From a virus (taxonomy: Duplodnaviria; Heunggongvirae; Uroviricota; Caudoviricetes), in IMG/VR virus record IMGVR_UViG_2574180019_000010, positions 1 through 39,851 of that record: DNA of 39,851 bases; one strand, 5' to 3'. The notes below the pieces were generated by a model. It had not been told where the DNA came from and did no database searches. It worked only from the letters and a program-made list of their open reading frames with translations. Of this stretch, positions 2,818-39,440 are shown one piece after another; position 1 is the stretch's first letter, and each line of letters opens with the position of its first letter. A program made the position numbers and the translations under genes.

Positions 2818-3572
2818 CAGTTAGGCGCTCCTGTGTTACCGCCGCCGGTCTGTACTCCGCCGTGCGTGTGCGTCATCAGGCTCTTACCACCAGCTTTTAC
2901 ATCGTTAGTCACCGTGACAGGGCCAAGCATCGTCGCGGTGCCGCCGCTTTCGCCCATCCCCTGAGAAAGATTCCCGTTTATTGTCACGTTGCCGTTTAGC
3001 GTGATGGTGGGTGATGTGATCGTGGTTCCTCCTTCTGCTGTCGCCGTCAGCGCGCCGGGGGTTTGAACCGTGATGTTATGGCCTGCGGCCACTTCCACAA
3101 ACGCAGCGCCATCATCAGTACGCAGTTGCGCGGCGCTGGTGCTGATTCCGCTGATTTTCTGCGCCTGCGACTGGGGACCTACAATACAAAACGCATCCGA
3201 TAAATCATGCATTCTGTCATCAACAGGCTCCTGTATTCCGCCGTTCTGCCACCAGAAATCAATACAACGATCGGCAAAAATCACCAAACATTCATCACCG
3301 GCTTTAACTGGAAACGTTAGCGTACAGCCTCCGCCACGCGGGAATACCACTGGCACATCCACCAGCAATGGGTAATTTTTGGTAATGCGGTTGCCGTCGT
3401 TATCAATTTCAACGTAACGGATAGCAGGCTGTACAACCGCCGTCACCGCATCAGGAGCGAATGACTGAACAATGCCAGGCAAGGCGACACGGATCTGGTT
3501 CTTTGTTGTTTCCCGTTCAGATTTAAATGTTTCGGCAAGGTCGCCGCTGCGGGTCTGGTCAGATACTGCCAT
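2817..3572 (-). CDS. Baseplate spike, gpV-like
   Basis: 251 aa; Gly-rich C-terminus with HTHGG motif as in spike apex; GGAG SD upstream. Confidence 0.6.
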   Translation of the reverse strand: MAVSDQTRSGDLAETFKSERETTKNQIRVALPGIVQSFAPDAVTAVVQPAIRYVEIDNDGNRITKNYPLLVDVPVVFPRGGGCTLTFPVKAGDECLVIFADRCIDFWWQNGGIQEPVDDRMHDLSDAFCIVGPQSQAQKISGISTSAAQLRTDDGAAFVEVAAGHNITVQTPGALTATAEGGTTITSPTITLNGNVTINGNLSQGMGESGGTATMLGPVTVTNDVKAGGKSLMTHTHGGVQTGGGNTGAPN

Positions 3573-5289: not shown

Positions 5290-6351
5290 TTACTCCCGGT
5301 TAAGCGAGCCCTGAGTGCGGAGATCCGCCGCGCCACGCGCTTCGCACATCATATCCATGTACCACGCCAGGCCCCTTGTATCGCCAGTGTACATAATCCC
5401 GCGCACAATATAAACGCCATCCGTTGCGATGCTGGCAGGCTGCGATGTGGTGCCGCTTAGCGTGATATTTCCATCCGTGTTCTGGTCGGTGATCTGACCA
5501 CCAGCCATCGCAATATCGTTGTTCGACAAGGCGGTACGATACACGGAAGCCTGATCCAGCTGAATGAGTCCGTTAACCCGGATGTTCGGATTAATAAGCG
5601 CGCGGACGTTTACGCCGTTACCGATAGTCTGCTGCGGCATGCCAATAAGCCCGGTAGCGCTGTTGAGCACAATCGCTTCATGAACATATTCGTTATTCGC
5701 CACCATCTGGCGTTGACCGTCCACGAATTGCCATGTTGCGCCACATTGTCCGGCCACGTTATCCATAAGATGCCGTGTCATGCCGAACAGCACCCGCCCC
5801 CGGGGGAATACAGTAGCAGGCATTTCAGGCGTCAGGCCTTCGGTCGCACCTTTGGCTTCGAAGTCTTTCATCAGCGCACGGTTCACATCAGCGACCGTGT
5901 AACCGGCAGCCAGCGTCTGTGAGGTTATACTGGTGGCAAAAGCCAGATCAGTATCTGCTGCCTGAATCAGGACGTAGGAATCAACCGGACTGTCTTTTCC
6001 TGTGACCGAGTAGCGAATTTCACCGCTGAAAATCAGTCCGTAGTTGCGGCCATCTCTCTGGCCCACGTCCGCCGCGTCAACTTCCCGCACGGTCCCTACG
6101 TCGCTTGCTGACACCTCCGGCGCGATACCGTCGTAACCGGCAATCAGACGCACTTTCGAAAATTCCTGCCCGGTGATTCGGTTCACAGTATCTGCCGAGA
6201 GGTTATAAATTTTGATAGTCCCTACCCGGGACGCGCTGCTGATGTTGAACCAGTCGATCGTAAAGGTGACTTTGAAATCACTTAGCTCAATTCCCTGACC
6301 GTTCCCGTCCACAAGCTGCAGCTCGAAATGTCTCATCCAGTTCTGTGACAT
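5290..6351 (-). CDS. Tail/baseplate hub-like protein
   Basis: 353 aa; position downstream of tape measure and small tail proteins. Confidence 0.45.
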   Translation of the reverse strand: MSQNWMRHFELQLVDGNGQGIELSDFKVTFTIDWFNISSASRVGTIKIYNLSADTVNRITGQEFSKVRLIAGYDGIAPEVSASDVGTVREVDAADVGQRDGRNYGLIFSGEIRYSVTGKDSPVDSYVLIQAADTDLAFATSITSQTLAAGYTVADVNRALMKDFEAKGATEGLTPEMPATVFPRGRVLFGMTRHLMDNVAGQCGATWQFVDGQRQMVANNEYVHEAIVLNSATGLIGMPQQTIGNGVNVRALINPNIRVNGLIQLDQASVYRTALSNNDIAMAGGQITDQNTDGNITLSGTTSQPASIATDGVYIVRGIMYTGDTRGLAWYMDMMCEARGAADLRTQGSLNRE

Positions 6352-6353
6352 GC

Positions 6354-6656
6354 TTACTCCGTTGATACCAGTAAATGACTGAGGCCGCCCAGATCAGTTT
6401 TCGTGGGATAATCCTGTGTGTTGTCATCGCAGACCACCACCAGCTTAAAACCAAGTCCCATACAGGCGTACTGCGCCAGCAGGTCAGCACCAGTGACGAG
6501 AGGAATACCGGAGATTACCGGCTCCCCTCTGTCGTTCTGCAGGTCCATAATCCAGTACAGATCGCGCCATATGATGCTAATCCGCCAGGTAACACCACCC
6601 AGGACGATGCTGAACTGCTGGTTGTCCGCTGTCAGCGGAATTTCCTGAATTGTCAT
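6354..6656 (-). CDS. Small tail protein
   Basis: 100 aa; tightly packed in the tail operon. Confidence 0.4.
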   Translation of the reverse strand: MTIQEIPLTADNQQFSIVLGGVTWRISIIWRDLYWIMDLQNDRGEPVISGIPLVTGADLLAQYACMGLGFKLVVVCDDNTQDYPTKTDLGGLSHLLVSTE

Positions 6657-7243: not shown

Positions 7244-9231
7244 TAACCCACCCTCACCTGATTACTTCGCATGACCTGAGCATTTGCAGACTGTTGCCGA
7301 CGTGCAACCTCATTACCGACAGCGTGCGGATCTCCACCACCGTAAATGTGGTAGGTATTTTGCTGGTTAACCTCTGTCATTTTGCCACTAATTCCCGCCA
7401 CGGCAGCCTTATTAATCAGCTCTCGAGAATAGATATTTCTTCCATTCTCATGCTGGATAATGCTGCTCATCAATGCTGACATGGTTTGCGGATCGCTCAT
7501 ATTCAGGGCAGCCCGGGGATCCACTCCCAGTCGTTGCGATACAGCCCTGATATACGCAGTTGTGTTGTTATTATCAGACGCAGGTGCCCAAGTAGAGATA
7601 ATTTTCTCCACACTGTTTATTCCCCGTCCGGCGTACAGCATTAACTGACGAGCAAGAGCCCGTAATCCATCAAAAGCAGTTTCAAATCTGGCAAATCGCC
7701 CGCCCGGGCGTTCAAGAGAAGCCCCTGCCTGACCAGCAAAATTAAGGTTTCCCGGATTGTTATTCCGTTCTCCTCGTTTCGTAGCCTGTGCATATTGTTC
7801 CGGCTCATCATCACCAAACCAGCCGCGTACCGTCCGGCCCACACTGCGGGGATCGAATCCCCAGTGCTCTTTAATCCAGTCGGCAGTACTGTTAGCGCTG
7901 TCTGTAACCATCGGCATCGCTGACGGATTTTCGCTGCCCTGATTAAGTATCTGTTTGCCGATGATGACGGCATCAGCCCAGCGGCCATCTTTGATAGCGT
8001 TGAGCAGGTCGGCGATCATGTTCAGCATTTTGCTGAATTCGCCCATCTGGTCGATGAAGTTGCTGAAATCCCACTTCAGGGACCATGATTTTGGGTCAAT
8101 ATTGAGCAGTTTCGCCAGCACTTTCGCCAGTTCATTAACAGACCCTTTCAGGTCACGAACCATCTTCAGCGCGGCATCGACCTCCGGCTTCCACTTGCCC
8201 CAGTCAATCAGGCTGTCGCCGCCTTCCTTCCAGGTCTGATAGTCCTCCCACAGAAGGGCAATCCCCGCCGCCAGCGCGGTAATGAGACCAATCGGCGACA
8301 TCCAGAACGTACTGTTCAGAATGCGCAGCGCAATCGTCAGCGCGCCAAACAGCGAGATGAGCTCCCGCGTTTGCTTATCCAGCGATTGCCACCAGGTGAT
8401 AAGGCTGGATGTTCCCTCAATTAGCCTGAAGAACAGCCGCCCGATGATGTCTCCGATCGCCAGAATGCCTTTTATGGCTTTCGTCAGGGTCTGCTCGATA
8501 CGAGGGAAGTTGTCCAGGATATGGCGGCGCAGGGTGTCCAGCGAACCCGCAAGCCCACCCGCAAGATTAGAGCCGATTTTGTCACGGGCCATGCCTGCCA
8601 TCGCGCCGAACTCGCGCAGGGAGGTCATGAATTTGTTGGAGCTTCTGGCCGCCTCGTCAGCATTGAAGCCGATAGCTTTCGCCATTGCGCTGTACTGCCC
8701 GGAGAACCCCCCCACACCCCGGCGCATCGCCATAAGGGTATTTTCGTCAATGCCCAGCATCTGCGCATACTGGTTAGCCCGGTAATACGGTATGCTGCTG
8801 AGCTTCTGGCCGACGCCCGTAAAGATAGCGGCCATGTCGCGCATGTTACCGCTGGCGTCACGGGTCTGTACCCCCAGACGATTCAGAAATCCCTCCGCCC
8901 CGGGATTATTACGAATAAACCGGGAGAGGTTTTCCAGAGAAGATCGCGCAGCGTCCACGCTGCCGCCAACCTGCGAAACCGCATAGCCAATAGACTGAAT
9001 TCCCTGGACTGTCGCGCCGGTGCGCTGTGACGCCCAGTAAAGATTATCCAGACCGGAGGCGATCTTAGCCGTGAAGGCCACCACGGACAGCGCGGCTCCT
9101 TCAACGGCCAGCCCCATTTTGATGACATTTGCAGTTGTACCGGCGAGGACAGAACCGAACTTTTTCGCTCCTGCATCATCCACACTGAAGCCAAGCGAGA
9201 CGAGGAAATCTTTAATAGTTTCAGCGTTCAT
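7243..9231 (-). CDS. Tail tape measure protein
   Basis: 662 aa from ATG 9231 with SD GGAGAGAGGAT; Gly/Ala-rich; follows the chaperone frameshift pair. Confidence 0.7.
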   Translation of the reverse strand: MNAETIKDFLVSLGFSVDDAGAKKFGSVLAGTTANVIKMGLAVEGAALSVVAFTAKIASGLDNLYWASQRTGATVQGIQSIGYAVSQVGGSVDAARSSLENLSRFIRNNPGAEGFLNRLGVQTRDASGNMRDMAAIFTGVGQKLSSIPYYRANQYAQMLGIDENTLMAMRRGVGGFSGQYSAMAKAIGFNADEAARSSNKFMTSLREFGAMAGMARDKIGSNLAGGLAGSLDTLRRHILDNFPRIEQTLTKAIKGILAIGDIIGRLFFRLIEGTSSLITWWQSLDKQTRELISLFGALTIALRILNSTFWMSPIGLITALAAGIALLWEDYQTWKEGGDSLIDWGKWKPEVDAALKMVRDLKGSVNELAKVLAKLLNIDPKSWSLKWDFSNFIDQMGEFSKMLNMIADLLNAIKDGRWADAVIIGKQILNQGSENPSAMPMVTDSANSTADWIKEHWGFDPRSVGRTVRGWFGDDEPEQYAQATKRGERNNNPGNLNFAGQAGASLERPGGRFARFETAFDGLRALARQLMLYAGRGINSVEKIISTWAPASDNNNTTAYIRAVSQRLGVDPRAALNMSDPQTMSALMSSIIQHENGRNIYSRELINKAAVAGISGKMTEVNQQNTYHIYGGGDPHAVGNEVARRQQSANAQVMRSNQVRVG

Positions 9232-19756: not shown

Positions 19757-20471
19757 TGAGGTCACGCTCTCCATTGCCATCATCAATACCTGCATCACGG
19801 CGAAGACGATCAGCCTCCAGAGACACCTTATCAGTGGCGGCCTTGCGGTAGGCTGTATCAGCAAATATTTTTCCTACCGTCGCAAGCGTGCCAACGATGG
19901 ACTCAATACGAACTGTATTGCGCATCATTGCTTTCTCGGCGGCGCTGATATTTTCCATCAGCATCTTCCTTTCCTGGTCCCCATTAGCATCTTCCAGCGA
20001 CACCAGCCACCGACCGATATTCTCTGCAGCGACAAGGTTGTTAGCACGAAGGCGAAATAATTCGTCCTCGAGCGTCAACGCTTTAGCGTCCTCTATCACC
20101 TCATCTTTGAGCAGAAGGCGACGGGCATAACCACCGTGTTTTAATGCCTGTTGGTTACCGGGTTGGAATGGGTTAGTCGGGGGATCGGTACGCATTCCGC
20201 GTATCGGTTTCGTATCCAGTGTAGGTTCTGTTTTTAGTTGCGTACCTTTTTGTGTAAGGCCAGTAATGGCAGGCTTTCTGCTGGTACGCACTTTTCTTTT
20301 TTGCGTACCATTTTTGCAAACCTGCGTACCGCCACTGCGTACCCAACCAAGCTTTTTGGCCCTCTTCCTGATAGCCCCTTCTGTAACGCCGTATTTCTCG
20401 CCTATATCACGGAGGCTAAGGACTCCGGCCCGGTATGCCGATTCGATGGCCTCCCAGTCCGGTTTTGCCAT
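19722..20471 (-). CDS. Terminase small subunit
   Basis: 249 aa; N-terminal HTH-like segment; directly upstream of the large subunit; contains repeated TGCGTACC octamers. Confidence 0.6.
   Translation of the reverse strand: MAKPDWEAIESAYRAGVLSLRDIGEKYGVTEGAIRKRAKKLGWVRSGGTQVCKNGTQKRKVRTSRKPAITGLTQKGTQLKTEPTLDTKPIRGMRTDPPTNPFQPGNQQALKHGGYARRLLLKDEVIEDAKALTLEDELFRLRANNLVAAENIGRWLVSLEDANGDQERKMLMENISAAEKAMMRNTVRIESIVGTLATVGKIFADTAYRKAATDKVSLEADRLRRDAGIDDGNGERDLNDFYSDIQTDA
20239..20343. repeat. Five copies of octamer TGCGTACC (four direct, one inverted) inside the small terminase gene; candidate pac site
   Basis: Copies at 20239-20246, 20283-20290 (inverted), 20302-20309, 20323-20330, 20336-20343; impose GTQ repeats on the protein. 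Confidence 0.4.
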
Positions 20472-20528: not shown

Positions 20529-20714
20529 TCAGTCCCGAACAAACGTAACCTTCGTGTTTGTCGCTCGCCTTACAAGGCGCGCCGCTTCGCGTTGCATTTC
20601 ATCGATAACTTTTTGCGTCATCGGCTGATGCGCATATTTACGTTCAATCTCTGCAAAAATCCCGTTCATCGTTTCGCTGTCTGGTGGGATAACTTCAACG
20701 TTTAATCGTGCCAT
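20529..20714 (-). CDS. Hypothetical small protein
   Basis: ORF between spanin and terminase genes; start uncertain (TTG 20741 or ATG 20714); no clear SD. Confidence 0.3.
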   Translation of the reverse strand: MARLNVEVIPPDSETMNGIFAEIERKYAHQPMTQKVIDEMQREAARLVRRATNTKVTFVRD

Positions 20715-20973
20715 TGGTTTGTGCTGCCCTGTTTTTCTCAAAAGTCCTGATATCGGCCTTATCCCTGTTGCACTGTGCTAACGCTGACAACAACGCAACA
20801 TTCAGGTTAAGGCTGGCTCCCCACGTAAACGGGTCGGGTAAATCTGGCTGGGGTGTTTCATCCGTCAGACTGGCTGGTAACGGAACGACCGGCACCGACA
20901 CGTATACCGTTCGCGTATTCGTGCAACCGCTTAACTGCGCCAGAAGGAACGATACGAACAGCACAATCATCAT
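20695..20973 (-). CDS. o-spanin, Rz1-like outer-membrane lipoprotein
   Basis: Alternate frame overlapping the Rz 3' end; signal MMIVLFVSFLLAQLSGC with lipobox; Pro-rich mature part. Confidence 0.5.
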   Translation of the reverse strand: MMIVLFVSFLLAQLSGCTNTRTVYVSVPVVPLPASLTDETPQPDLPDPFTWGASLNLNVALLSALAQCNRDKADIRTFEKNRAAQTNGTIKR

Positions 20974-25181: not shown

Positions 25182-25337
25182 TTACTCCTCAGGTTCGTAG
25201 ACTGTGAAGACAGCGACCTCCGTCTGGCCGGTTCGGATTCGTACCTCGCAGAGGTCTTTCCTCGTTACCAGTGCCGTCACTATGACGGTTAAACAGATGA
25301 CGATCAGGGCGATTAACATCGCCTTTTGCTGCTTCAT
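25182..25337 (-). CDS. hokD: Hok-family type I toxin, HokD/RelF-like
   Basis: 51 aa MKQQKAMLIALIVICLTVIVTALVTRKDLCEVRIRTGQTEVAVFTVYEPEE; SD AAGGAG upstream; in-frame upstream extension from ATG 25394 is mok-like. Confidence 0.7.
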   Translation of the reverse strand: MKQQKAMLIALIVICLTVIVTALVTRKDLCEVRIRTGQTEVAVFTVYEPEE

Positions 25338-25350
25338 AGCCTGCTTCTCC

Positions 25351-25460
25351 TTGCCTTTCGGCACGTAAGAGGCTAACCTAGATTTGCCGTTCATAGATTG
25401 AGCCTCAGATTAATGTTAAGCGTCTTGCAGGACGCGTAATGTTAACTGGGGCTTTTCTCT
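25351..25460 (+). ncRNA. Candidate Sok-like antisense RNA with promoter
   Basis: -35 TTGCCT (25351-25356), 17-bp spacer, -10 TAACCT (25374-25379); predicted transcript is antisense to the hok leader; no clean terminator found. Confidence 0.3.
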
Positions 25461-25548
25461 ATCTGCCTTTTGGTGTTCATGCCTGAGACAGATAGCCTCA
25501 AGCACCCGCAGCAATTTTACTTAACTCCCTTTTTCCCGCAAACCGTTT

Positions 25549-32608: not shown

Positions 32609-33016
32609 ACCATTTATTGGATTAATTCAATATTCTTGCTGTAGGGGTATAGCCGAGGCCACCAAAGCCCGGAGGTGGTGAAATAAAACCGGGCACAACA
32701 CCAAGGCGCATTTCCGGTATCCATAAAGAGTCGGTCTTGTCTGTTAAATTTAAATGGTGGGAGTGCGCCTCCGGTTGTAAATAACGACATTGCTATGTGT
32801 AGTCTTTGGCGGCATCAGTTCTACTCCGTGGCTGCCCTGCCGCCCCTTTTTAAAGTGAATTTTGTGATGCGGTGAATGCGGCTAAGCGCACGCGGCACAG
32901 TTAAAAGCATCAGTGTTATGGGTGGATTATCCGGCGTTAATTGTTAACTGGTTAACGTCACCTGGAGGCACCAGGCACCGCATCGACAAAATTCATTTGT
33001 AAAAATGGAGATAATT

Positions 33017-37300: not shown

Positions 37301-37507
37301 ATGACAAAAATTATGAGATATGACGATGTTAAACCATGTCCGTTTTGTGGTTGTCCATCTGTTACGGTGAAAGCAATTTCAGGATATTACCGGGCAAAAT
37401 GCAACGGATGCGAATCCCGAACTGGCTATGGTGGAAGTGAAAAAGAAGCACTCGAAAGATGGAATAAACGAACTACTGGAAATAATAATGGAGGTGTTCA
37501 TGTATAA
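37301..37507 (+). CDS. ralR: Restriction alleviation protein RalR/Lar
   Basis: Contains MRYDDVKPCPFCGCPSVTVKAISGYYRAKCNGCESRTGYGG; start may be 37313. Confidence 0.6.
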   Translation: MTKIMRYDDVKPCPFCGCPSVTVKAISGYYRAKCNGCESRTGYGGSEKEALERWNKRTTGNNNGGVHV

Positions 37508-37688
37508 AATAACTGCCACTATTGAAAAAGAAGGTGGCACTCCTACTAACTGGACAAGATATTCAAAATCTAAATTAACGAAATCAGAATGCGAAAAAAT
37601 GCTCTCAGGGAAAAAAGAAGCAGGCGTGTCCAGAGAGCAGAAAGTAAAGCTGATAAATTTTAATTGCGAGAAACTTCTGTCCTCGTGA
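37500..37688 (+). CDS. ydaC: YdaC-like small protein
   Basis: 62 aa MYKITATIEKEGGTPTNW; SD GGAGGT. Confidence 0.5.
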   Translation: MYKITATIEKEGGTPTNWTRYSKSKLTKSECEKMLSGKKEAGVSREQKVKLINFNCEKLLSS

Positions 37689-39165: not shown

Positions 39166-39283
39166 AAAAAAGACCGGAATACAGAAATTCGAGTAAATTT
39201 CGAGTAATTTCGGGGAGACGTTTGCAACTAATTGATTTTAAATACAATTAAAAAAAGACCGAATACGATTCCTGTATTCGGTC
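39166..39283. repeat. att-region repeats downstream of int
   Basis: AAAAAAGACCG(G)AATAC at 39166-39182 and 39251-39266; tandem TTCGAGTAA units at 39187-39208; hairpin GACCGAATAC / GTATTCGGTC at 39257-39283. Confidence 0.4.
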
Positions 39284-39440
39284 CAGGGAAATGGCTCTTG
39301 GGAGAGAGCCGTGCGCTAAAAGTTGGCATTAATGCAGGCTTAGTTGCCTTGCTCTTTAAGAATAGATGACGACGCCAGGTTTTCCAGTTTGCGTGCAAAA
39401 TGGTCAATAAAAAGCGTGGTGGTCATCAGCTTAAATGTTA

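Follow-up and report, generated by a model that had tools for sequence, protein, structure and literature searches.

How the small terminase subunit (TerS) of phages that package from a pac site selects viral DNA is disputed, and the best-studied TerS with a helix-turn-helix (HTH) domain appears to be non-specific (PMC4737164). A 2022 review calls DNA recognition by pac-type TerS unclear and controversial, with sequence-specific binding rarely demonstrated (PMC9611059), and a 2024 study points out that for ES18, a classical transducing phage, the pac site has yet to be found (PMC11260489). Here, we describe an array of six copies of an octamer, GGTACGCA, inside the small terminase gene (terS) of an Escherichia coli prophage, virus record IMGVR_UViG_2574180019_000010, whose 39,851 nt we refer to as the window. 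The array probably serves as the recognition part of the packaging site and is best viewed against the systems that it most resembles.

The closest logic is that of the cosB site of lambda-like phages, in which several short repeats in both orientations are read by the recognition helix of the N-terminal HTH of TerS (gpNu1). Among lambda, 21, and N15, helix and R-site sequence differ together and set packaging specificity (PMC4669245), and in N15 an accessory copy of the site lies inside the terS gene (PMC4669245). In contrast to our array, which occupies nt 129 to 285 inside terS, cosB is placed between cosN and the gene start, relies on a bend induced by integration host factor (IHF), is bound by a dimeric winged HTH, and belongs to cos packaging with a gpA-type large terminase subunit (TerL); cosN and IHF sites were not searched for in the window. 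The window TerS has neither a Pfam family nor detectable similarity to Nu1, its TerL is of the Terminase_3/PBSX type, and in its wider family about ten site classes share one GGTnnnCA frame.

In P1, the pac repeats are located within pacA, the gene of the recognition subunit of terminase; these hexamers, TGATCA/G, form two groups flanking the cut and are regulated by Dam methylation. P1 is a headful packager whose pac site, like our array, clusters short repeated words (seven hexanucleotide repeats; PMC11260489). In contrast, the octamer GGTACGCA contains no GATC, and the proteins are unrelated.

The pac region of SPP1 and SF6 (pacL, pacC, and pacR, with direct repeats boxA, boxB, and boxC) likewise goes together with a TerS that has an N-terminal HTH; its direct repeats and bent DNA reach into the start of terS, and the model is a ring of HTH domains around which the DNA wraps (PMC4737164). 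The DNA-binding domain of SF6 binds weakly and with low sequence specificity, and its repeats show little conservation, whereas the word in the window is exact, fits the recognition helix, and is conserved at its synonymous positions, a pattern that suggests direct readout of the bases. The pac site of P22 resembles the array in lying inside the small-terminase gene of a headful enterobacterial phage (PMC9611059). It is, however, a single 22-bp asymmetric site in gene 3 without a repeat array, and its sequence, GAAGATTTATCTGAAGTCGTTA, is absent from the window with up to three mismatches allowed.

Sf6 packaging starts are spread over ∼2 kb, and we know of no repeat array described for this phage. 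Sf6 packages by a headful mechanism (PMC5630979), its TerS has an N-terminal HTH (PMC9611059), and its gp2 is a full-length homologue of the window TerL; different from that, a sequence match of the window TerS was found neither with Sf6 gp1 nor with any chain in the PDB.

An octamer array confined to the small terminase gene

The window contains six exact matches to TGCGTACC, which reads GGTACGCA on the terS sense strand, compared with 0.88 ± 0.90 expected; none of 100 dinucleotide shuffles reached six. The matches start at 20239, 20302, 20323, and 20336 on the plus strand and at 20187 and 20283 on the minus strand. All six are confined to 157 bp (20187 to 20343) inside terS, with none elsewhere in the 39.8 kb, so that within the window the array occurs as a pac site should, that is, once per genome and in or next to the small-terminase gene. 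The copies and the adjoining tracts are as follows.

20336 to 20343, minus strand: octamer copy 1, GGTACGCA in sense; gene nt 129 to 136, read as W43 (third base)-V44-R45-S46 (first base)
20323 to 20330, minus strand: octamer copy 2; gene nt 142 to 149, G48-T49-Q50
20315 to 20322, minus strand: degenerate copy, GGTTTGCA, with two mismatches; gene nt 150 to 157, encoding V-C-K
20302 to 20309, minus strand: octamer copy 3; gene nt 163 to 170, G55-T56-Q57
20283 to 20290, plus strand: octamer copy 4, inverted, GGTACGCA on the plus strand; gene nt 182 to 189, V61-R62-T63
20239 to 20246, minus strand: octamer copy 5; gene nt 226 to 233, G76-T77-Q78
20187 to 20194, plus strand: octamer copy 6, inverted; gene nt 278 to 285, M93-R94-T95
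20231 to 20235, 20247 to 20251, 20292 to 20295, 20297 to 20302, 20311 to 20315, and 20353 to 20357: T-runs on the plus strand, A/T tracts beside the octamers

Copies 3 and 4 form a 9-nt inverted repeat that flanks an 11-nt A-rich spacer. One-mismatch copies are missing from the array region, and the flanks of the six copies share no consensus extending past the octamer. The A/T tracts are for the most part Lys codons and might possibly act as bending elements. At the array locus, Rfam returned no known RNA family, and a scan for promoters and terminators gave nothing above chance. A shared helical phase of the three G-T-Q copies (21- and 63-bp spacing) was rejected as a rule, given that arrays of the type found in the Salmonella phage SEN34 are spaced by 15 and 12 bp.

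The earlier note on this sequence had counted four direct and one inverted octamer between 20239 and 20343, which is correct for that interval but overlooks the sixth, inverted copy at 20187 to 20194. The T-runs that it saw between the octamers are real, their positions having been read in the sequence. Its statement that the octamers impose GTQ repeats on the protein applies to three of the four direct copies (aa 48 to 50, 55 to 57, and 76 to 78), the fourth being read as (W)VR(S) at aa 43 to 46; counted over all copies it applies to three of six, as the inverted ones encode (V)RT and (M)RT. Its two further assignments, a small terminase and an HTH-like N terminus, agree with the annotation below: the gene lies directly upstream of a PBSX/Sf6-type terL, and AlphaFold2 predicts a three-helix HTH at residues 6 to 41.

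19722 to 20471, minus strand: terS, small terminase subunit, 249 aa (PHROG phrog_370, "terminase small subunit," E = 4e-94)
20337 to 20471, minus strand: coding region of the HTH domain (three helices), aa 1 to 45 (AlphaFold2; weak Pfam matches to Sigma70_r4 and HTH_AsnC)
20349 to 20381, minus strand: coding region of the recognition helix, aa 31 to 41, EGAIRKRAKKL (AlphaFold2 helix boundaries)
20094 to 20330, minus strand: coding region of the linker, aa 48 to 126, predicted to be disordered and basic (AlphaFold2 predicted local distance difference test [pLDDT] score, ∼30), carrying most of the array

In the AlphaFold2 model of TerS (mean pLDDT, 62), the HTH helices at residues 6 to 15, 20 to 27, and 31 to 41 score 81 to 89 and a long helical hairpin at residues 122 to 199 scores 75 to 90, and the portion encoded by the array (aa 43 to 95) falls mostly within the predicted disordered stretch. 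The predicted architecture, an N-terminal HTH followed by a helical core, is that of TerS of the Sf6 gp1/SF6 G1P type. Because the full-length TerS search listed only relatives of at least 85% identity, the underlying alignment has little depth, and confidence in the model is limited to the HTH and the hairpin. Against the PDB, phmmer found nothing significant for TerS, and the best Foldseek hit had an E value of 0.8, with generic helical hairpins only; a protein search with the 45-aa HTH alone returned short fragments only. No Pfam or NCBIfam family matched TerS, which is named only by PHROG families (phrog_370 and phrog_1206).

Selection acts on the DNA at the octamers

At the octamers, selection acts on the DNA and not on the peptide. 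Three copies read GGT-ACG-CA (G-T-Q) and one reads TGG-GTA-CGC-AGC (W-V-R-S) in another frame, while the inverted copies read (G)TG-CGT-ACC (V-R-T) and (A)TG-CGT-ACC (M-R-T); the same word thus occurs in two frames and in either orientation within terS. Synonymous resampling of the TerS codons, using the window's own codon usage, yielded a mean of 0.37 octamers and a maximum of four in 20,000 trials, compared with the six observed, and, for the given protein, the codons actually used at the six copies have a joint probability of 2e-8. When 51 distinct close relatives are aligned, the entropy is 0.099 bits in octamer columns versus 0.34 bits in other linker columns, and at third codon positions the values are 0.061 bits within octamers and 0.508 bits in the remaining linker. 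Together with the recurrence of the same octamer in TerS with unrelated bodies (see below), these improbable codon choices and invariant synonymous sites bear out the DNA-level selection that the earlier note had suspected.

Across 49 distinct close relatives the copy number varies from two to eight, with every copy between gene nt 129 and 297; their flanks of ∼2.4 kb are octamer-free, save for a single copy in one relative. In Klebsiella relatives, such as phage GZ7 (L001, terS nt 142 to 157), two octamers abut as GGTACGCAGGTACGCA and read G-T-Q-V-R-K. By this comparison, the degenerate GGTTTGCA at 20315 to 20322 of the window is the decayed second member of such a pair, which is an exact GGTACGCA in the Klebsiella relatives.

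Part of the copy-number variation among close relatives arises by 12-nt duplications (GTQSGTQ). One could therefore regard the octamers as a functionless by-product of GTQ/VR peptide repeats, which arose when replication slipped within a disordered linker rich in lysine. The predicted disorder of the region and the range of two to eight copies would fit such an origin, as would the tandem GTQ repeats of collagen-like phage proteins, which yield the same octamer by chance. Slippage, however, does not explain why one word gives four different peptides in two frames and both orientations, why codon choice is so far from the needs of the protein, or why synonymous sites are conserved within the octamers. 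Moreover, all copies change together with the recognition helix, and in one Pantoea phage the array lies partly outside the coding region (both described below). We consider this explanation very improbable.

The HTH and its array recur in otherwise unrelated proteins

Outside the window, the HTH domain is present in 57 deposited genomes of phages from Klebsiella, Salmonella, Escherichia, Edwardsiella, Erwinia, Enterobacter, Providencia, Aeromonas, Pantoea, Pseudomonas, Acidovorax, and others, and in at least 80 prophage loci (80 were kept per scan of one genome per bacterial species, with hundreds of further matches). The pooled set comprises 95 distinct HTH sequences, all from TerS of proteobacterial phages. 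A GGTnnnCA word occurs at least twice in the 420 nt past the HTH motif in 81 of the 95 and at least three times in 60 of them. Among 388 control segments of 420 nt from the same loci, none had three copies and five had two.

An example of the independence of HTH and protein body is given by SEN34 and the coliphage HK639, whose TerS match the window protein only over the first 65 to 75 residues, the remainder belonging to another PHROG. Both genes carry three or four copies of GGTACGCA, located at nt 174, 189, 201, and 267 and read as V-R. Similarly, SEN34, HK639, and GF-2 (phrog_1206 body) as well as EhrS_59 and pAEv1818 carry GGTACGCA or GTACGCA three to seven times as V-R and not as G-T-Q. 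Conversely, the same body can come with a different helix and a different word, as in ENT1 (HATIL, GGTAACCA) versus EhrS_59 (EGGIR, GTACGCA) and in PSTCR7lys (HQAIS, GGTTGCCA) versus SEN34 (EGAIR).

Nor is the position of the array relative to terS fixed in the family. Pantoea phage PdC23 (L179, OL396571.1) has four GTACGCA copies that begin 70 nt ahead of the terS start codon and reach nt 49 of the gene, thus spanning the start codon instead of the linker. The large subunits differ as well: the TerL of HK639 (L264, HM208537.1; 698 to 2269) and those of the SEN34 class match no Pfam family and no PDB sequence, indicating that the module of HTH and octamers combines with at least two unrelated TerL types.

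The octamer varies in step with the recognition helix

In distant members of the family the repeated word differs at all copies together, and it does so in step with the recognition helix. Representative pairs of helix and word are the following.

EGAIRKRAK: GGTACGCA (window, SEN34, HK639, GF-2)
NHATILKRAN: GGTAACCA (ENT1)
AHNTILKRAK: GGTGACCA (PS-1)
THQAISKRAK: GGTTGCCA (PSTCR7lys)
SDTAIRKKAK: GGTTCGCA (PseuP_222)
THGAINKRAK: GGTATCCA (8P, USP_18, AP1)

Reduced to the first five residues of the helix and the central triplet of GGTnnnCA, the correspondence defines about ten specificity classes and has no exceptions.

EGAIR, DGAIR, EGAVR, EGGIR: ACG
DTAIR: TCG
HGAIN, HGAVN, HSAIN: ATC
HTAIN: TTC
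HVAIN, HVAIG, HVAIA: TAC
HQAIS, HTAIQ: TGC
HRAIQ: AGC
HATIL, HPAIT, HVAVM: AAC
HNTIL: GAC
HVTIS, HVNIS: TAA

All 737 of 737 same-helix locus pairs (many of the loci being related) share their triplet, compared with a mean of 225 in shuffles, which never exceeded 371. Mutual information between helix and triplet peaks at helix positions 1, 2, and 5 (E31, G32, and R35 in the window), the usual base-contacting positions of an HTH recognition helix, which face the major groove. The same helix goes with the same triplet in 175/175 pairs in which the rest of the HTH is <60% identical, while different helices in an otherwise ≥80% identical HTH share a triplet in just 34 of 140 pairs. Illustrative examples are a near-isogenic trio in which almost only helix and word differ (L221, HGAIN and ATC; L232, HTAIN and TTC; L172, HQAIS and TGC) and the near-isogenic pair L184 (HGAIN, ATC) versus L206 (EGAVR, ACG).

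The converse search started from the DNA. In 2.9 million viral contigs, we looked for three octamer copies 4 to 20 nt apart (4 to 30 nt for GGTTCGCA) and then checked the upstream coding sequence, with the following outcome.

GGTACGCA arrays: family HTH adjoining in 87 of 120 (EGAIR 82, EAAIR 4, EGMIR 1)
GGTATCCA arrays: family HTH adjoining in 58 of 120 (HGAIN 53, HGAVN 5)
GGTTCGCA arrays: family HTH adjoining in 13 of 118 (DTAIR 12, ETAIR 1)
GGTTGCCA arrays: family HTH adjoining in 51 of 120 (HQAIS 34, HTAIQ 14, HQAIA 2, HTAIG 1)

None of these 209 pairs of array and HTH crosses classes. The exact co-variation ties the octamer to the HTH of the small terminase, from which we infer binding. 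Nor would inheritance as a single block account for the pairing of helix and word, because the arrays sit in unrelated sequences and reading frames and the PdC23 array lies partly upstream of the gene.

Might the octamers instead be targets of a factor other than TerS, such as iterons for replication or partition, sites of a host nucleoid protein, or a restriction-modification or methylation target? A few GGTACGCA arrays do occur without a family HTH nearby (L305, L271, and L274, described next). Another binder, however, would not make the word type fit the adjacent helix type in 209/209 arrays found from the DNA, and the octamer, non-palindromic and free of GATC, is unlike typical restriction-modification targets. 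We therefore give a binder other than TerS very little credence.

As for the GGTACGCA arrays without an HTH, hand inspection of the first 80 GGTACGCA loci showed about half of those lacking one to lie in tandem-repeat proteins (collagen-like GTQ, pentapeptide, and ETQMGTQ repeats). Three others stand out. L305 (IMGVR_UViG_3300031616_000015) has 11 GGTACGCA copies, nine direct and two inverted, within ∼190 bp of apparently non-coding DNA (3284 to 3478), and the family HTH was found nowhere in this 13-kb locus; the array could be a satellite's pac mimic, a decoy, or the iterons of an unrelated protein. L271 (IMGVR_UViG_2795385460_000001, 6348 to 6382, minus strand) has three GGTACGCA copies with exactly the 15- and 12-nt spacing of SEN34-type arrays, and L274 (IMGVR_UViG_3300029782_000360, ∼7460 to 7500, minus strand) has a window-like array with offsets of 0, 13, 25, 44 (inverted), and 76. 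No ORF (open reading frame) encoding the HTH lies upstream of either array; they may represent decayed terS genes or elements that borrow a terminase.

A candidate pac recognition element

We conclude that the six GGTACGCA octamers are probably binding sites of the TerS HTH domain and together form the recognition part of the pac site of this E. coli prophage. The candidate pac site of the earlier note thereby gains support at the level of sequence, through the co-variation of helix and triplet and through the large subunit.

18353 to 19864, minus strand: terL, Sf6 gp2-like/PBSX family (Pfam Terminase_3, 4.5e-38; TIGR01547, 1.9e-41)

This TerL matches the Sf6 gene 2 protein (PDB 4idh/4ife) over its full length (residues 3 to 442, E = 1.7e-78) and, by this and the TIGR01547/PBSX match, is a partner of the headful type. 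Since it is a full-length homologue of Sf6 gp2 and Sf6 packages by headful, the window prophage most likely uses a pac site.

The same TerL bears on whether the array might instead be the TerS-binding subsite of a cos-type site, comparable to lambda cosB, in a phage with unit-length genomes and defined ends. Lambda, 21, and N15 offer a precedent, in that a (winged) HTH of TerS reads their repeated R sites and helix and site differ together, and so does the accessory site inside gene 1 of N15 (PMC4669245). Furthermore, the HK639 record is linear, starts 50 bp upstream of terS, and encodes a TerL that cannot be classified. In the window, however, TerL is the Sf6 gp2 homologue of the PBSX family and not of the lambda gpA family, and several relatives are deposited as circular records, which suggests, as weak evidence, that no unique ends were defined, in keeping with circularly permuted DNA. 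A cos-type site, for which no cosN-like element was sought, seems unlikely to us.

We regard it as similarly unlikely that the HTH-bound sites act mainly as an autoregulatory operator or roadblock for terS-terL expression in place of a packaging signal. Co-variation shows recognition by the HTH and not the purpose of binding, and the pac region of SPP1 overlaps with the promoters of its terminase genes, making a dual role possible (PMC4737164). Yet the sites lie 130 to 290 nt inside the coding region, where the scan detected no promoter- or terminator-like signal above chance, and the array is unique in the genome, as expected of a pac site. Wherever a small terminase has been studied in detail, its DNA-binding domain functions in recognition for packaging (PMC9611059).

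On the preferred pac reading, TerS made from terS would oligomerize through its long helical hairpin, leaving flexibly tethered HTH domains, each of which would bind a single asymmetric octamer through direct readout. Residues E31, G32, and R35 of the recognition helix would read the central ACG, and the conserved K36, R37, and K39/K40 would hold the constant GGT..CA frame. With six or seven sites over ∼160 bp, core spacings of 8 to 21 bp, and A-tract flanks, several HTH domains may bind cooperatively, and the DNA would probably be wrapped by them. Array-bound TerS would then recruit the Sf6-type TerL, which would cut nearby, and headful packaging would proceed in the terS-to-terL direction, toward lower window coordinates. 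With the sites written into the coding sequence of TerS's own linker, the HTH domain and its target travel as one cassette of ∼300 bp.

Several points weigh against this interpretation. Fourteen of the 95 HTH sequences lack a repeated GGTnnnCA word, and two loci with an EGAIR helix, L227 and L230, have no array in the available sequence. Helix and array are just 40 to 200 nt apart and many loci are related; linkage or shared descent could hence explain part of the co-variation, and the number of loci should not be taken as the number of independent events. The one pointer to a headful mode in the window prophage is the homology of its TerL, and for the SEN34/HK639 class, whose TerL have no Pfam or PDB match, either cos or pac may apply. 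The octamer sites could also serve autoregulation, in addition to packaging or instead of it. As for published work, the authors of the SEN34 study did not identify its packaging sequences (PMC5261728), the TerS HTH of SPP1 and SF6 has weak affinity and no sequence specificity for pac DNA (PMC4737164), and specific binding by pac-type TerS is generally hard to demonstrate (PMC9611059).

For the family as a whole, we lean toward a broader proposal, with more reserve than for the window itself. The window protein may belong to a large, so far undescribed TerS family of proteobacterial phages with a readable code, in which helix positions 1, 2, and 5 specify bases 4 to 6 of GGTnnnCA with at least ten mutually exclusive specificities. 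Each member would carry two to eight copies of its own word in terS or, in one case, just before it, and the ∼300-bp cassette of HTH and target would move between terminase types.

Genomic context of terS

Of 5,426 complete E. coli genomes, 199 contain a match to terS; many complete chromosomes of this species, including those of S163-2, E9, and 8178, carry a copy with 100% identity, and the gene is also found in many Klebsiella prophages. RefSeq genomes of E. coli and most records of Klebsiella phages label it "hypothetical protein." Among sequenced phages, the nearest are temperate ones of Klebsiella, such as GZ7 and Mulock, with ∼88% identity. The listed terL ORF opens with TTG and overlaps terS by 143 nt. 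The overlap between terS and terL is conserved; in GZ7, however, terL is annotated to start 89 nt ahead of the stop of terS, and the true start in the window is thus probably an internal ATG downstream of the TTG.

Genes for an Rz-like spanin, an endolysin, a holin, and a Q-like antiterminator lie upstream of terS on the same strand, a standard lambdoid late-operon layout. Between the spanin gene and terS there is a 70-codon ORF (20529 to 20741, minus strand) that matches phrog_12811, of unknown function (E = 4.5e-39), and is conserved in position. Elsewhere in the window, Rfam matches above the gathering score are the RalA antitoxin small RNA (sRNA; 37506 to 37684, minus strand), the sok antitoxin RNA (25332 to 25507, minus strand), the DicF sRNA (32794 to 32845, plus strand), and, near the right end, the overlapping SraC/RyeA and SdsR/RyeB (39246 to 39390, plus and minus strands); such RNAs are what lambdoid prophages of E. 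coli typically carry or have at their flanks.

The records RCIP0034 and RCIP0098 end inside terS, and we considered these ends as mapped termini. By the coordinates of the near-identical GZ7, the break is the terL start codon, an annotation convention, and the candidate was rejected; record starts in the relatives follow the same convention (terS or terL start codon).

Novelty and implications for phage packaging

A literature search returned no paper combining the octamer with "terminase" and no prior description of the array; with the octamer alone, the search was swamped by adaptor sequences for amplified fragment length polymorphism (AFLP). The announcement of the Mulock genome does not mention packaging. 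While pac and cos repeat sites as such are already known, new here are a TerS recognition array inside terS and a family-wide code that relates helix to triplet.

With an exact 8-bp word and several natural variants set apart by only three residues of the helix and three bases, the family offers a clean test system for the disputed question of how pac-type TerS selects viral DNA. A defined pac site would let the direction and reach of lateral and generalized transduction from these prophages be predicted, improve terminase annotation, and allow the construction of packageable plasmids, akin to cosmid vectors, or of phages with altered packaging specificity. If the family-wide proposal is true, arrays without terS, such as L271, L274, and L305, might represent satellites or decoys by which these terminases are exploited, and packaging specificity would be predictable from sequence and could be reprogrammed by a few residues and bases.

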